Assembly (NCBI GenBank): GCA_020725385.1
Contig: DYFC01000026.1
Coordinates: forward strand, 1 to 51,867
Source of the DNA: Nitrospira japonica
GTDB taxonomy: Bacteria; Nitrospirota; Thermodesulfovibrionia; Thermodesulfovibrionales; SM23-35
Length of the DNA: 51,867 bases
Direction of reading: 5' to 3'
Part shown: in pieces, positions 1 through 11,263 of the stretch
How positions within the stretch are numbered: position 1 is the stretch's first letter
How the letters are laid out: every line of letters begins with the position of its first letter
Made by a program: the position numbers and the translations under genes
Notes under the pieces: model-generated
Database searches by the model: none
What the model was told of the DNA's origin: nothing
The model's input: the letters and a program-made list of their open reading frames with translations, nothing else

Positions 1-100
1 GCATATCTGTCTTCCGCTCAAGATGAGAGGGATCTGTATGGTGATATTCCCCTCTATCAAGAGGGGATAAAGGGGTGTGTTGTTTGATGGCAAGGATTTG
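1..100. repeat. 100-bp direct repeat, copy 1 (runs off the window start)
   Basis: Identical to 763..862 except one mismatch (G31 vs T793); contains the hairpin TTCCCCTCTATCAAGAGGGGA. Confidence 0.95.
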
Positions 101-128
101 GTCGACGATAGGTGATGAAAGGCTCCTG
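1..128 (-). pseudogene. Fragment of a Type IIG (Eco57I/TaqI-like) R-M enzyme C-terminal tail
   Basis: Minus strand reads QEPFIT-(1-nt shift)-IVDQILAIKQ..., resembling the QQPFIxLVDQIL tail motif; no start codon. Confidence 0.6.
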
Positions 129-130
129 AT

Positions 131-394
131 TCATACCTTATAAACTTCTTTGCGATGTTTGATAGCATAAATAGTAATAATCCTTGATGAATGTTCAAAG
201 GAATATATTACCCTCCGGTCGCCAACTCTGAGTTTATATTTGCCTTTAAATTTTCCCTTGAGTGGAGCATGAATCATATATTCAATACTTTGTGAAAGCC
301 ACTCTATTTTATTTGAAACTTGCTGGGCAATGGATTTATCAAGACGGGCGAGATCTTCTTCAGCCTGAAGCGTAAACTGAACTAAGTATGTCAT
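131..394 (-). CDS. relE: RelE/ParE-family type II toxin
   Basis: About 87 aa with YKLRVGDRRVIY and HRKEVY; ATG overlaps the antitoxin stop (TGATG). Confidence 0.88.
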   Translation of the reverse strand: MTYLVQFTLQAEEDLARLDKSIAQQVSNKIEWLSQSIEYMIHAPLKGKFKGKYKLRVGDRRVIYSFEHSSRIITIYAIKHRKEVYKV

Positions 395-591
395 CAACTC
401 AACCCAAGTTTTTTCTTAACATCTTCAAAAGGTATTCTTTCTTTAGAGGCAATGGATATTTCAAGTGCCCGAACAAAATCTTCTCTTAACTCAAGTCCAA
501 GGTCAGGGTCAATAAGTTCTTTGAACTTTTCTTCAATGGTTTTACTTATTAATTCTTTTAACTCATCTGTAGTTAGATCAGCTACTTTCAT
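394..591 (-). CDS. Putative antitoxin of the RelE module
   Basis: 65-aa acidic protein directly upstream of and coupled to relE; AGGAGG SD; ends IPFEDVKKKLGL. Confidence 0.8.
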   Translation of the reverse strand: MKVADLTTDELKELISKTIEEKFKELIDPDLGLELREDFVRALEISIASKERIPFEDVKKKLGLS

Positions 592-616
592 GGTTATACC
601 TCCTGTTTAAAATATT

Positions 617-658
617 TTACCCTTTCCCGTCCACAATCTCAATCTCCTCATCTGTCAG
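617..658 (-). pseudogene. Short Type IIG R-M C-terminal tail remnant
   Basis: Translates LTDEEIEIVDGKG*. Confidence 0.55.
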
Positions 659-661
659 GGA

Positions 662-688
662 GTAGGGGCAATTCATGAATTGCCCCTA
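662..688. repeat. GTAG-family REP palindrome
   Basis: GTAGGGGCAATTCATGAATTGCCCCTA; perfect palindrome 663..688 beginning with GTAG. Confidence 0.85.
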
Positions 689-700
689 TATTAATGATCG

Positions 701-862
701 TCATTTTTTTTCTTCAACAATTTCTATTTCTTCTTCGGTTAATCCATACAACCGATATGCCAGCATATCTGTCTTCCGCTCAAGATGAGAGGTATCTGTA
801 TGGTGATATTCCCCTCTATCAAGAGGGGATAAAGGGGTGTGTTGTTTGATGGCAAGGATTTG
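701..862 (-). pseudogene. Type IIG R-M enzyme C-terminal tail fragment
   Basis: Translates QILAIKQHTPLSPLDRGEYHHTDTSHLERKTDMLAYRLYGLTEEEIEIVEEKK*; LYGLTEEEIxIVE is the typical terminus of these enzymes. Confidence 0.72.
763..862. repeat. 100-bp direct repeat, copy 2
   Basis: 99/100 identical to 1..100. Confidence 0.95.
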
Positions 863-1165
863 TTATATATAATTTTCATCCAGTTCCCACTGTAGAGGAT
901 TGTCTATAATGTATTCTCTAATTTCGATTAATTCTTTTTCATTGCGGATAATATGTTCGTAATAATTTCGTTGCCAGATAGGTATTCTATGCGCATATCT
1001 CAATTGATTGATTTGTTTTGTGGTGGTGGATTTAAATAACCGGATAATCGTGGGGATTGAATTATGGGTTGGTTTACCGAATTGTTCAATTGGCGTTTCA
1101 TTTTTCCCCGTAGGGACACGTTGCGACGTGCCCCTACAATAATTGGATATAATTAATATTCCGTA
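863..1165 (-). pseudogene. Truncated REP-associated tyrosine transposase (RAYT, Y1/IS200-like), C-terminal half
   Basis: Frame reads GILII...EQFGKPTHNSIPTIIRLFKSTTTKQIN...IWQRNYYEHIIRNEKELIEIREYIIDNPLQWELD*; the N-terminal half including the HUH histidines is missing. Confidence 0.85.
1110..1137. repeat. GTAG-family REP palindrome embedded in the RAYT reading frame
   Basis: GTAGGGACACGTTGCGACGTGCCCCTAC; GTAG at both 5' ends. Confidence 0.85.
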
Positions 1166-1236
1166 CTTTTTTGAATTAACTCTATTAACCTTTTCTTTAA
1201 ATTCGCTGCTCCTGTATTGGTTATAAAGTTTTTCAT
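1153..1236 (-). pseudogene. N-terminal stub, possibly of a PLD-nuclease/helicase (R-M associated) gene
   Basis: 27-aa ORF MKNFITNTGAANLKKRLIELIQKSTEY*; resembles from memory the start of PLD-helicase proteins; breaks off at the RAYT junction. Confidence 0.45.
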
Positions 1237-1407
1237 GTTCTTATTATTTTTATTTAATCTAAAAAATGCAATTGAAAAAAACTAAAAAGCCATCATGGTT
1301 GCAGACAATAATTAGCAAAAGAGGTAAGAGTATAGACCTAACGGGTTAATAAGTCTGCAAGTTAAATGTCTTGATTTATATGAAGTTATTCGTTATGCTT
1401 TTTGATT

Positions 1408-3006
1408 ATGATTATCGAGAAAACAGATTTTCTTATTATAGGAAGTGGTGTTGCTGGATTGAGAGCTGCTATTGAGCTTGCTCCATATGGAGAGGTAATA
1501 GTAGTCACAAAAGACAGACCTGCTGAAAGCAGCACAGAATATGCTCAGGGTGGAATCGCAGTTGCATTAAGTGATGAAGATGAGGTTGGGATACATTATG
1601 AAGATACACTACGGGCAGGAGATGGTCTCTGCAATGAAGAGGCTGTAAAAATACTTGTTGGTGAAGGTCCTGAGAGGATAAAAGAGCTTATTTCATGGGG
1701 CGCAGAATTTGATAAAGAAGGCTTAAAACTCGACTTCACAATGGAGGCTGCCCATTCAAGAAAAAGAGTGCTTCATGCTCACGGTGACGCAACCGGGAAA
1801 GAATTAGAAAGAGTTTTGTTAAATAAAGTGCGGACATTTTCTTCCATAGAAAAATATCCATATGCATTTACAAAGGACCTTATAATTCAGGATGGAAAAT
1901 GTTATGGAGCATATGTTCTCGCAGGAGGACAGATGGTTGCTCTTATTGCAAAAGCTACAATTCTAACTACAGGTGGAGCAGGGCAGATTTTTGCGAGGAC
2001 TACGAATCCTGCTGTGTCAACTGGCGATGGAATGGCTATAGCTTTTAGAGCAGGAGCTGTGCTTGGAGATCTTGAATTCGTTCAATTCCATCCAACAGTT
2101 CTTTATGCTCCTTCAGCCCCACAGTTTCTTTTGAGTGAAGCAATGAGGGGTGAAGGAGCTTTATTGAGGAATATTAATAGAGAATTGTTTATGAAAGAAT
2201 ATCATCCCGATGCAGAGCTCGCACCGAGAGATGTTGTGTCAAGGGCAATAATTTCACAAATGGTTCGTACAAATAGCAATCATGTTTATCTTGACCTTAC
2301 CCATCTTGATAGTGATTTTGTAAAACATAGATTCCCGCGGATATATGCAACATGCCTTCAATATGATGTTGATGTTACAAAAGAGCTTGTTCCTGTATCT
2401 CCTGCTGCTCACTATATTATGGGAGGTGTAAAAACAGATATAAACGGAGCAACAAGCATAAAAGGACTTTTTGCTGCAGGAGAGGTTGCATGCACAGGTG
2501 TTCATGGCGCAAATAGACTTGCTTCAAACAGCCTGCTTGAAGGGCTTGTTTATGGTGCAAGAGCTGGTGTTTCTGCAAGAGAATATGGACTGGAAGCAAG
2601 AATAAATGGAATTGAAGTAGAAGCATTAAATATTAATGAGTCTAAATATATAAAAAGACGTTCACATGATATTACGAGATTTGATATTGAAGAAATCAGG
2701 CATTCTCTAAGAAAATTAATGTGGGAAAAGGTAGGTATAATTCGATGTGCAGATTCTCTTACTGAAGCAAAGAAAAAACTTGACAAATGGTCCTTTATAC
2801 TTAAAGAAGAATTCAATACAAGAAGAGAGCTTGAACTTCAGAACATGATACAATTAGCCCAATTAATAAATTCTGCCGCTATTTTAAGAAAAAACAGTGT
2901 TGGTGCACATTATCGTTCTGATATACCTTTTAAAGCTGAGGGGTGGCAAAAACATATAATATTCAGAAAACAAAAAGAAGAGGTTGTTTATGATTTTATC
3001 TCATGA
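1408..3006 (+). CDS. nadB: L-aspartate oxidase
   Basis: GSGVAGL FAD motif, YAQGGIA, EFVQFHPT, HYIMGG, GVHGANRLASNSLLEG; ATG 1408 preferred over TTG 1402. Confidence 0.95.
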   Translation: MIIEKTDFLIIGSGVAGLRAAIELAPYGEVIVVTKDRPAESSTEYAQGGIAVALSDEDEVGIHYEDTLRAGDGLCNEEAVKILVGEGPERIKELISWGAEFDKEGLKLDFTMEAAHSRKRVLHAHGDATGKELERVLLNKVRTFSSIEKYPYAFTKDLIIQDGKCYGAYVLAGGQMVALIAKATILTTGGAGQIFARTTNPAVSTGDGMAIAFRAGAVLGDLEFVQFHPTVLYAPSAPQFLLSEAMRGEGALLRNINRELFMKEYHPDAELAPRDVVSRAIISQMVRTNSNHVYLDLTHLDSDFVKHRFPRIYATCLQYDVDVTKELVPVSPAAHYIMGGVKTDINGATSIKGLFAAGEVACTGVHGANRLASNSLLEGLVYGARAGVSAREYGLEARINGIEVEALNINESKYIKRRSHDITRFDIEEIRHSLRKLMWEKVGIIRCADSLTEAKKKLDKWSFILKEEFNTRRELELQNMIQLAQLINSAAILRKNSVGAHYRSDIPFKAEGWQKHIIFRKQKEEVVYDFIS

Positions 3007-8607: not shown

Positions 8608-9584
8608 TTAAATATAAGCTCCGGTTTTTTCTGAAAAACCCTTGTATCAGGTGGAACAGATTCAGTCAACCAGGAATTCCCACCTATTACAGATCTTGCG
8701 CCAATTACAGTTTCTCCACCGAGAATTGTAACACCAGCATAGATGATTACATCATCCTCGATGGTGGGATGGCGTTTCTTATTTCTAAGTTCTTCAACAG
8801 CATCTTTTGGTAATGAAAGAGCTCCGAGAGTAACTCCCTGATAGAGCCTGACACGATTACCAATTACAGTAGTTTCCCCGATTACTACACCTGTACCATG
8901 GTCTATAAAAAAACTCTCCCCTATTTCAGCACCGGGATGAATATCAATTCCTGTTAAACTATGGGCGTATTCTGTCATGATACGGGGTATTAGCGAGACC
9001 TTTTGTTTATAAAGTTCGTGTGCTATACGATAAACAGTTATTGCAAAAAGTCCCGGATAACTGAATATAACCTCGTCATATGTTTTTGCAGCAGGATCAC
9101 CTTCATGTGCCGCACGAACATCTTTAGCGAGCATGTATCTAATTCTCGGGAGTTCTTTGATAAAATTTACAGTTATTTCCTGAGCTTTTTCTTCGCAATT
9201 GAAGCACGACATATTATGCCTTCTGCATTCGTGTCTTAATGCAAGTGTTATTTGTTCAGAGAGTGATTCAAATAAAGAGGTAACTTCCTGACCGAGATTA
9301 TAGCTCAAATTTACTTTATCAATTCTTAAATTGGAGAAATATCCTGGATATAGAATCCGGCATGTTGTGTAAATGATCTCAATAATCCTTTCTTTTGAAG
9401 GCAAAGGCTCGAGATCAACATGATCGAAGCATTCCCCGGTGTTGCAAGACTTGACAAGAATTTCTATAACACCGGGAAGTTCTTCCCGAAAATGTTTGGT
9501 TGTTTCTTTCTGTATTTTGCATTGATTTAATTTTTCATTGTCCAATTTAGATCCCCTTTGTATGTTTTTCTTAAATTCTATCAT
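8604..9584 (-). CDS. cysE: Serine O-acetyltransferase (EpsC-type)
   Basis: [33 protein letters not shown] hexapeptide repeats; coupled to cysK. Confidence 0.94.
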
Positions 9585-9802
9585 AAAATATAAAATCTGT
9601 TGTTCATAATTTTTTCATATTCCATTCTTTGTTTGTTCATAATTAAAAAGTAAAATTAATTTAATAATTGTGAGCAATCTTTCAATTCCTCCTTCTTGAT
9701 CGGGAATGAGGAGGTGAATATTAAAATTAAAATTTATTCCTCCTCAATCCCTGTTTTTAAAAGAAAAATTATTTTGTATATAAATACATGAAAGGAGTGT
9801 AG

Positions 9803-11263
9803 ATGATGCTTAAAAGAAAACCTATTTTCATAGCATCCATATTTACAATCGCAGGTTTGATTTTAGGGCTGATTATCTCTTCAAATTTTGGTTTTCATTC
9901 AAAGGGTTATTCAGGAGAAGCTTCTATTTCCAAAGAGGCCATAGAAATTCTTACGAAAACAAATAATGCTATTGCAGAAGTCGCCGAAGCAGTAAAACCT
10001 TCTGTAGTGAATATTTCTTCTACAAAAACTATAAAGGACCACGGCATACCATCTCCTTTTTCTAATGACCCCTTTTTCAGGAGATTTTTTGGTGATGATT
10101 TATTTGATAAGCCAAGAGAACACAAGCAATCAGGTCTTGGCTCCGGAGTTATTGTAGATAAAAACGGCTATATACTCACCAACAATCACGTAATAAAAGA
10201 CGCTGATGAAATAAAAGTGAAGCTCTCAGACAAGAGAGAGTTTAAAGGCAAAGTTATCGGTACCGATAAAAAAACAGATATAGCAGTTGTCAAAATAGAC
10301 GCGAAAGATCTTCCAGCCATAAGATTTGGAGATTCTGATAAGTTAAAAGTTGGTGAGACAGTTCTTGCTATAGGGAATCCATTCGGGCTAAATCTTACTG
10401 TAACAACTGGAATTATAAGCGCAACAGGTAGAGCAAATGTTGGGATAGCAGATTATGAAGATTTCATACAGACAGATGCTGCTATTAATCCAGGCAATTC
10501 CGGTGGAGCTCTTGTAAATGTAAGAGGTGAATTGGTTGGAATTAATACTGCAATTTTAAGTACAAGCGGAGGCTATCAGGGAATTGGGTTTGCTATCCCG
10601 AGCAATATGGCAAAAGCTGTTATGGATTCTCTTATTAAAAAAGGCAAAGTTGTCAGGGGATGGCTGGGTGTTAGTATACAGGATTTAACACCCGAACTTG
10701 TTAAGCAGTTCAACCTTAAATCAGAAGAAGGTGTTCTTGTAGCAGATGTTGTTGAAGATAGTCCTGCTGAAAAAGTAGGGATAGAGCGGGGAGATGTTAT
10801 AGTTGAATTTGATGGCAAAGAGGTTAAAGACTCTCGCAGTCTGAGAAACATGGTAGCAGGGACTGCGCCTGATACAGAGGTTAAAATCAAGTTAATCAGA
10901 AATGGAAGTTCAAAAACAATTACTGCAAAAATAAGTGAAGTATCGGGTGAGATGAGAGCAGGCTTAAAGGATTATGAAAATCTCCTAAAAGGTGTTTCGG
11001 TTCAGGATTTAACTCCTTCAATCAGAAAAAGCCTGAATATTCAGAAGAAAATTGATGGTGTAGTTATAACTGATATTGAAGAAGACAGTCCTGCTGAAGG
11101 GGTATTAATGAGAGATGATGTAATAATGGAGATTAACAGGAAAAAGATTAAGAATGTAAAAGACTATGAGTCAGTGGTATCAAAGATTAAATCAGATCAG
11201 AATATTTTACTTCTGCTTCACAGAAAAGGTGCCACAACTTATATAACTTTAACAGAGAAATGA
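9803..11263 (+). CDS. degP: HtrA/DegP (Do) serine protease with two PDZ domains
   Basis: TNNHV, DIAV, QTDAAINPGNSGG, RGWLGV; N-terminal signal/TM. Confidence 0.93.
   Translation: MMLKRKPIFIASIFTIAGLILGLIISSNFGFHSKGYSGEASISKEAIEILTKTNNAIAEVAEAVKPSVVNISSTKTIKDHGIPSPFSNDPFFRRFFGDDLFDKPREHKQSGLGSGVIVDKNGYILTNNHVIKDADEIKVKLSDKREFKGKVIGTDKKTDIAVVKIDAKDLPAIRFGDSDKLKVGETVLAIGNPFGLNLTVTTGIISATGRANVGIADYEDFIQTDAAINPGNSGGALVNVRGELVGINTAILSTSGGYQGIGFAIPSNMAKAVMDSLIKKGKVVRGWLGVSIQDLTPELVKQFNLKSEEGVLVADVVEDSPAEKVGIERGDVIVEFDGKEVKDSRSLRNMVAGTAPDTEVKIKLIRNGSSKTITAKISEVSGEMRAGLKDYENLLKGVSVQDLTPSIRKSLNIQKKIDGVVITDIEEDSPAEGVLMRDDVIMEINRKKIKNVKDYESVVSKIKSDQNILLLLHRKGATTYITLTEK

Follow-up and report, generated by a model that had tools for sequence, protein, structure and literature searches.

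Toxin–antitoxin cassettes among dead restriction–modification gene tails at a variable nadB site of a Thermodesulfovibrionia genome

How toxin–antitoxin (TA) and other small defence genes move, and how defence islands grow, is largely unexplained where no integrase or transposase lies nearby, and the part of a TA review available to us states that the fixation of acquired TA systems is not understood (PMC2654758). The left end of a 51,867-nucleotide (nt) stretch of DNA labelled Nitrospira japonica (assembly GCA_020725385.1, contig DYFC01000026.1), hereafter the window, poses this question in compact form: a RelE-family TA pair stands there between copies of the last codons of a restriction–modification (R-M) gene. 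The window is contig C21 of the source genome (G000), a metagenome bin of 71 contigs and 2.46 Mb; below, Gnnn denotes genomes, Lnnn loci, Cnn contigs, and X1, X2, X5 and X6 runs with Logan contigs. An initial annotation proposed that the conserved tail serves as a recombination anchor. We think it probable, taking the following as one joint reading, that the three window tails are dead 3′-end relics of an Eco57I-family (Type IIG-like) R-M gene and that the array arose by repeated ‘insertion with long target duplication’ together with recombination between the resulting repeats. This mode of insertion, which is more general and has been described before, suits the data better than would a cassette system specific to the tail.

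Between 1236 and 1, in the minus-strand direction, the features follow in this order: helicase stub, hairpin resembling a repetitive extragenic palindrome (REP), end of a REP-associated tyrosine transposase (RAYT) gene, tail A, REP, a 13-codon tail end termed p2′, a 65-aa gene, the toxin gene and tail C (Table 1). A repeat search finds a single direct repeat in the window, 1-100 and 763-862, identical at 99/100 nt with a spacing of 762. Tail A translates as QILAIKQHTPLSPLDRGEYHHTDTSHLERKTDMLAYRLYGLTEEEIEIVEEKK (862..704, stop at 703..701) and p2′ as LTDEEIEIVDGKG (658..620, stop at 619..617). Tail C has an ATG (134..132) that overlaps the toxin stop; its bases 134..1 encode MNQEPFIT and then, after a 1-nt frameshift, IVDQILAIKQHTPLSPLDRGEYHHTDPSHLERKTDM in the next frame. 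The repeat search and translations bear out the three minus-strand tail copies of the initial annotation, two of them nearly identical and placed around a TA pair. The edge at which tail C leaves the window is the end of contig C21, so that the true length of the repeat is hidden in the window. The two repeat copies differ by one base and have unlike 5′ continuations (101-134 versus 863 onwards), and bases 134-101 of tail C (34 nt) extend the homology of tail A in register.

The bracketed pair had been called a RelBE module. Its toxin is of the RelE/ParE family (ParE_toxin 40.1 bits, cut-off 23; RelE_StbE 32.5 bits, cut-off 27.9), whereas its 65-aa partner has no significant family in Pfam or NCBIfam, so the name RelB is positional only. 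The partner is kept alongside the toxin in 5 relatives, plus those of 13 RelE-toxin loci with open reading frames (ORFs) listed. The genomes of named toxin homologues are nearly all Thermodesulfovibrionia or Nitrospirae bins, and the source organism is accordingly assigned to that group.

What are the tails? A Pfam scan of the isolated 53-aa tail gives no match, and the identity of the tail is therefore drawn from full-length bearers. The sole one in the source genome is a 1182-aa protein on contig C36 (Pfam Eco57I 2.2e-31, TaqI_C 2.1e-08), whose end, ..EQRPFIDLIDKILAITKDEDY..EHQIDQLVYQLYDLTEEEIKII.., lies past the TaqI_C match and shares the motif QxPFI..D.IL..LY.LTEEEI with the window tails. 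A 506-aa gene end in G011 (Eco57I 2.6e-32, TaqI_C 6.9e-17) has the terminus QQPFI..DQIL..LY.LT.EE., as on C36. The domains of these bearers confirm the initial assignment to the terminus of Eco57I/TaqI-like R-M enzymes. No live full-length gene stands at the window tails: the open frame upstream of the tail ends is at most 12 codons, tail A is preceded by a stop and tail C is frameshifted. Two alternatives were rejected. The resident C36 gene as source of the window tails fails on a match of only 15 nt between them, and live small genes fail on the frameshifts and stops in the window and C52 copies (C52 is described below). At locus L048 an intact 56-aa tail ORF starts at an ATG overlapping a RelE stop, and this intact-looking tail, used as a tblastn query, matches window 862-713 (5e-08). 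L048 is a 1.4-kb contig from a bin labelled Candidatus Brocadia (anammox), with a RelE toxin 81% identical in aa to the window toxin and tails on both sides; its placement reflects either transfer between phyla or a binning error. On C36 a PLD-SNF2 helicase gene precedes the Eco57I-family gene, and the window's helicase stub is, judging from its similarity to that helicase (Table 1), probably a remnant of the array's lost head operon.

Does the array go on past the contig end? The first 84 positions of contig C52 match window 699-616 (p2′ plus REP) in reverse complement at 98.8% identity, and the contig continues with MntA/HepT, a tail D, HicB/HicA and a DUF362-like gene. Tail D is a decayed whole tail with stops, 83% identical to tail C over 64 nt; tails C and D have in common a frameshift not present in intact genes. 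In same-genus G005 the genes at window 1362 onwards and at C52 1371 onwards share a contig, only about 275 bp separating their starts, and the gap holds 222 bp aligning to neither contig and only a short tail relic, LYGFTEEEIVIVGING with its stop (about 50 nt). This synteny, nadB beside the DUF362-like gene, implies that the left ends of C21 and C52 are neighbours. About 63 nt of a second tail unit would then be unassembled between them, and the full array would comprise helicase stub, RAYT fragment, tail A, REP, tail end, RelE pair, tail C, a further REP and tail end bridging the contigs, MntA/HepT, tail D and HicBA, all of it apparently between nadB and the DUF362-like gene. Of the repeat, 100 nt are visible, and 247 nt would be its length with C52 and the unitig described below. 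The further tail-plus-cargo units anticipated leftwards by the initial annotation were thus found, with MntA/HepT and HicBA as cargo; the R-M gene expected ahead of the units was not, since the head of the array now consists of just a 27-codon helicase start and tails. The site varies within the genus: it holds almost nothing in G003, about 8 kb in G004 and, from ORF reading, a PIN (VapC-like)/AbrB-like pair in G002, and in G001 it is split over two contig ends.

Independent metagenome runs bear on the reality of the repeat. The depth of 616-862 against the RAYT-side flank is 178 versus 92 in X1 and 7.2 versus 4.4 in X2 (Logan contigs), both repeat alleles are seen, and the X2 contig with the 616-862 unitig runs on for 269 nt unlike the window. 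The X1 cassette unitig (71-645) has 3.4 times the flank depth. We regard it as quite improbable that the repeat stems from assembly overlap or strain mixing, or that the tails go back separately to several R-M genes, each of which chanced to have a TA pair downstream. Such an origin would suit a repeat that begins exactly at a contig end of a 71-contig metagenome bin, and the two tail families that stand side by side in G068, G041 and G048. The copies nevertheless differ in a base and in their flanks, the alleles and the roughly doubled depth recur in independent runs, and C52 is joined by synteny, all of which counts against the assembly artefact that the initial annotation had raised as a possibility; the 99% identity of A and C and the frameshift common to C and D exclude independent tail origins.

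Two further runs bear on the predicted 762-bp excision. One X5 contig (depth 5.65) joins 483-762 to 1-191; it covers the toxin end, the complete tail unit and the antitoxin start, so that it reaches into the antitoxin gene. An X6 contig joins 639-793 to 32-288, compatible with the X5 junction and stopping short of the antitoxin gene. The X5 junction from 762 to 1 could represent a 762-bp circle or tandem copy, or an assembly-graph loop, which contigs cannot separate. Parts of window 1-1400 are without contig cover in X5 and X6 and are uninformative in either direction.

Other arrays show that the alternation of tails and TA cassettes is recurrent, as the initial annotation had predicted for relatives. 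In the source genome itself, the C2 array (68115-73443) has four copies of another Eco57I-family tail, ending in LGLTEDERNEVYWAVCELVKNRLEKARSV and a stop, which separate a RAYT gene, a HigB-like pair, a DUF3368/UPF0175 pair and HicBA, with an R-M gene start fused to a tail fragment at the head. This tail type is the end of a 1251-aa Eco57I-family gene in G013 (G013:C10), behind which come, in turn, a partial tail, a pair homologous to the window RelE pair, a further tail copy and the next gene. On G011:C124 an Eco57I plus TaqI_C gene end is followed by cassettes with whole or partial tail copies between them (AAA_15/DUF3696 with a 164-aa gene, DUF3800 with a 157-aa gene, DUF433/DUF5615, HTH/zeta-like and HicB). 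L049, from a groundwater Nitrospirae bin, has R-M end, Bro-N gene, tail copy, RelE pair and decayed tail, and in L047 four tail units are interspersed among NYN-like, Gp49/HTH, RelE and HicB cassettes. Intact or near-intact Eco57I-family genes head the arrays in three relatives (G011:C124, G013:C10 and L049). Similarity of the relics to the head tail falls with distance in G013 and in L049, where it is 97.7% over 87 nt for the first relic and 80.6% over 36 nt for the second.

A 29-nt tail-end motif (at most 3 mismatches) occurs in 12/57 family genomes (reversed control, 0/57) and is 93-96% identical across genera among the matches found. Six of the 29 matches in the loci examined close frames of more than 1000 codons, one closes a 178-codon frame, and 22 are orphans with at most 82 codons upstream. 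The conserved tail end sits just before the ribosome-binding site of each cassette, and three arrays (G000, G011 and L047) close with HicBA as their final cassette. At three loci, L038 (G068:C113), L033 (G041:C67) and L032 (G048:C33), a second-family tail fragment lies directly past the first-family tail stop, a layout suggesting that R-M genes have replaced one another in series at a single site. The tail peptide search also picked up, at about 16.9-24.2 kb of C31 in the source genome, dense G/C-run hairpin repeats, ..CCCCCTTGACAAAGGGGG.., translating as NPLTPLTKGE.

The preferred reading of these arrays, insertion with long target duplication plus recombination, would run as follows. An Eco57I-family R-M gene and its PLD-SNF2 helicase partner would formerly have stood between nadB and the DUF362-like gene, at a genus-variable site. 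Small TA cassettes would enter one by one at the end of the R-M gene, each entry flanking the cassette on both sides with a copy of the final 40-250 bp of that gene; the upstream copy would keep the host gene whole and the downstream copy would turn relic, so that repeated entries would yield a head gene followed by n units of cassette and relic. Ordinary homologous recombination between the direct repeats may then duplicate, loop out or move ‘relic + cassette’ units, by which cassettes would carry tail scars to new sites. Later the head gene would have been deleted, with a RAYT/REP element in its place, giving a headless array. The repeats, the arrays, the join of the contigs, the scars and one clean empty site elsewhere in the source genome are observed; we infer both the duplication at insertion and the order of events. 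Recombination is needed because of the frameshift common to C and D, the 34-nt extension of tail C and the tail scars at other sites. The 762-bp unit, a TA pair plus REP hairpin, has the features of a ‘long target duplication’ as set out in PMC2853133 in its repeats of more than 30 bp, an insert below 20 kb and no mobility gene; its cargo is a TA pair and not R and M genes.

Is the tail a specific site? The initial annotation had proposed an anchor role for it, which the settings of the cassette in other genomes do not support. In G024 the RelE cassette lies between two copies of an flgE 3′ end (flgE by Pfam) of at least 139 nt, 93.5% alike, and within these repeats it brings along the start of a helicase gene and a tail relic. 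The G019 cassette is bracketed by copies, of about 55 nt, of a DUF433/PIN junction and has second-family tail scars at both ends, and in G013 and G022 it is bracketed by an unrelated tail. The same cassette between flgE or DUF433/PIN repeats means that the tail is not a specific attachment site. Boundaries vary as well, the repeats starting at QQPFI, SALE, MVY or LT.EEI, and among 13 RelE-toxin loci read by eye the tail-1 end is upstream in about 7, the tail-1 start stands right after the toxin stop in 6 or 7, and another tail is upstream in 1.

Elsewhere in the source genome TA pairs lie between long repeats that are not of R-M origin: HicBA on C10 (150 nt, 98%) and a PIN pair on C41 (70 nt, 97%). 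A small-ORF pair on C10, without family match, lies between repeats 9536-9614 and 10408-10488 (79-81 nt), both of which align to one 77-nt stretch of G005:C80; this stretch is a clean empty site for the pair. G005 lacks flanks with which the C10 HicBA cluster could be compared, and for the C2 array it shares the peptidase side only. At 19.0-22.3 kb of C10 three HicA/HicB-like pairs fall within 3 kb among interleaved repeats of 81-171 nt (87-98%), a region absent from 4/5 same-genus genomes searched.

Several observations weigh against insertion with long target duplication as the account of the window. No strain with tail, REP and p2′ minus the cassette was found for the RelE unit, G005 having only its relic of about 50 nt. 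Bracketing repeats of at least 25 nt occur in only 3/13 of the RelE-toxin loci, and the repeats of the C41 PIN pair are wholly absent from G005. The relics on G011:C124 do not fall in similarity to the head tail with distance. The X1 depths of 310, 178 and 92 are inconsistent with a linear model, and the X5 junction rests on one contig of depth 5.65 that may be an assembly-graph loop. For three unrelated upstream genes the stop codon is the TGA within one and the same R-M-derived ATGA that precedes QQPFI, a shared position that hints at a preferred junction. Finally, the frameshift common to tails C and D means that a dead relic, and not a live gene, was the template for one unit or more, which for that step would favour recombination or duplication over fresh insertion, and the 34 nt by which tail C prolongs the homology in register resemble the outcome of a crossover between two tails more than that of a new duplication.

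These last two features are what a recombination-anchor model would expect, in which circular or linear ‘tail + cassette’ units enter resident tails by RecA-type crossover and the flanking copies come from the donor. The tail scars on cassettes, the circle or tandem junction in X5 and the conservation of the tail-end motif also speak for it. We give this model a minority share of belief, as it can account neither for one cassette that is found between tails of two unrelated families, or between flgE or DUF433/PIN duplicates, nor for the C10 case, where the relative carries a single repeat copy; near-identical flanks (99% here, 97.7% in L049) are moreover expected from in-place duplication, whereas tails differ by 12-20% between arrays. 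The wider initial proposal, that tail and TA units are added or looped out behind an R-M gene, thus stands in its periodicity and its excision junction and fails in the specificity of the tail.

Could the tail instead be an attC-like site, used by an unrecognised site-specific recombinase for integron-like polar capture? Such a dedicated system would account for co-oriented cassettes, mostly TA pairs, for the recurrent last place of HicBA, for unrelated genes ending at one tail ATGA and for the position of the tail end before each ribosome-binding site. We nevertheless hold it improbable. The source genome has no integron integrase above the TIGR02249 cut-off (best two scores 74.8 and 66.6 bits against a 265-bit cut-off), scores no better than in 14 control genomes (0/14 above cut-off), so that the array is integrase-free as the initial annotation supposed. 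The arrays read contain no recombinase gene, unit boundaries vary, the fold of tail D is at chance (z -0.0 to +1.3 against shuffles) and in tails A and C only inserted hairpins fold; no GTTRRRY-type core was seen at the junctions, by eye only and without a model search. A further reading is more speculative than insertion with long target duplication, and we offer it tentatively: the 3′ end of Eco57I-family R-M genes may be a polar capture site for defence and TA cassettes, where entry at the live tail beside the head would duplicate the tail and leave the relic as the next promoter, units would cycle as circles or tandems of about 0.8 kb re-entering any tail and, rarely, other gene ends, and accretion would be integron-like without a recombinase of its own or with an unrecognised one. 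Its traces would be the recurrent ATGA junction and the 3.4-fold cassette excess in one metagenome.

The RAYT remnant and REP hairpins raise a last alternative, that a Y1 transposase moves REP-bounded segments with TA cassettes as passengers. RAYT fragments and REP hairpins do occur in both source-genome arrays, and with the C52 join REP copies stand on both sides of the RelE unit. They do so, however, because they lie inside the duplicated 247-nt unit, and the arrays read of G011, G013, L047 and L049 have no RAYT. IS200/IS605-type transposition is not known to make long duplications. We judge this explanation very improbable. The initial mention of REP cargo holds for the hairpin at 662-688; the remainder is a decayed RAYT end, with a Y1_Tnp score of 20.6 bits (5.2e-4) on 1003..866, under the 23-bit cut-off, and blastn matches to RAYT genes on C2 and C31. 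As in a REPtron, a RAYT remnant lies between inverted REP-like hairpins (662-688 and 1111-1137) at the array head; unlike one, the RAYT is decayed (46-84 codons left), the unit encloses tail A and RAYT is missing from other arrays, and this REPtron-like unit looks like a bystander or a later insertion. In the C2 array an intact 179-aa RAYT gene is flanked on both sides by tail fragments. In both source-genome arrays a RAYT gene or remnant occupies the exact place of the missing R-M body (window 863-1137; C2 72729-73268).

Table 1. Features at the left end of the window (positions in the window; empty strand cells, no strand assigned)
Feature	Position	Strand	Remarks
Tail C	1..134	-	Probable dead Eco57I-family C-terminal tail copy; exits the contig end; 1-100 is repeat copy 1
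8-bp-stem hairpin element TCCCCTCT-ATCA-AGAGGGGA	48..67		Inside tail C; twin at 810-829 in tail A
RelE/ParE-family toxin gene, 88 aa	131..397	-	Pfam ParE_toxin 5.6e-10; NCBIfam RelE_StbE 8.8e-08
Presumed antitoxin, 65 aa	394..591	-	No family match; overlaps toxin start by 4 nt; preceded by a ribosome-binding site
Promoter-like site TTGAGA-17-TAAAAT	614..642	-	Tail end and its stop codon; 23 nt before antitoxin ATG; consensus match only
Duplicated unit (tail + REP + p2′)	616..862	-	Single 247-nt unitig, about 2x flank depth; C52 1-84 is the end of the second copy
p2′ (13-codon tail end)	617..658	-	Older relic, from another tail copy
REP hairpin, 11-bp stem	662..688		Dispersed repeat of the family
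Tail A	701..862	-	Probable dead tail copy, truncated at QILAIK by the RAYT fragment; 763-862 is repeat copy 2
Decayed RAYT (IS200-like Y1 transposase) gene end	863..1117	-	Stop 865..863 abuts tail A
Second REP-like hairpin	1111..1137		Inverted relative to 662-688
N-terminal stub of PLD-SNF2 helicase, 27 codons, MKNFITNTGAANLKKRLIELIQKSTEY and stop	1153..1236	-	75% over 79 nt to C36 350-428
nadB-like gene	1402..3006	+	ORF reading; conserved anchor on one side of the variable site

Two smaller features of the tails deserve mention. The promoter-like site matches 10/12 consensus positions, the region having a total of 6 such sites against 5.9 expected from shuffles, no excess over chance, and a TAnnnT box lies at the tail stop in about 8/14 orphan ends and 2/6 intact ends, read by eye; a relic may conceivably be retained as a promoter for the cassette behind it. 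The hairpin element (Table 1), together with GGGGTGTG, forms an in-frame insert of about 35 nt in tails A and C. The 8-bp-stem element has one third copy in the source genome, at about 706 of C69, and none other; an X1 contig shares with the window only 47-81, the zone of this element in tail C. Short matches resembling the 35-nt element occur in relatives G009, G018, G007, G013 and G036.

How do these arrays compare with known systems? Nobusato et al. 2000 reportedly dealt with R-M systems that insert with long target duplication. Integron arrays and clusters of attC sites lacking integron-integrases (CALINs) are alike in their short, co-oriented, often TA cassettes separated by a 60-250-bp repeat that ends before the next start; here there is no IntI, the repeat comes from coding sequence and lacks an end-to-end hairpin, boundaries vary and the same cassette lies between unrelated repeats. 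Tandem accretion at the 3′ ends of tRNA or protein genes is similar in that each arrival restores the 3′ end and displaces the old one, so that end repeats separate arrivals, but such integrative elements encode integrases and have a fixed core, and the units here are 0.5-2 kb without recombinase. Two papers document insertion with long target duplication among R-M systems (Furuta, Abe and Kobayashi 2010, PMC2853133; PMC3874152). The first describes, as here, a small unit without integrase or transposase between direct repeats of variable length, tens to hundreds of bp, present in single copy in a relative and proposed to allow amplification and release. Here the cargo is TA pairs, not R-M genes (the word ‘toxin’ occurs 0 times in the available text of that paper), the target is an R-M gene’s own 3′ end, entries are stacked in arrays and relics travel with cassettes (PMC2853133). 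TA and abortive-infection genes beside R-M genes at variable hot spots are also known from R-M operons and islands; the accessible part of that account concerns gene content and regulation, and the duplicated tail scars here suggest an arrival route (PMC12255303). In the literature searched, whose scope left most subscription-journal papers outside, no description of TA cassettes stacked behind R-M gene tails was found.

In several genera of Thermodesulfovibrionia, the arrays thus keep a record, in the form of scars, of many gains that followed one another at a single type of site. They extend to TA cassettes an insertion mode described for R-M systems, with, in the window, a 762-bp unit that has a candidate circle or tandem junction.

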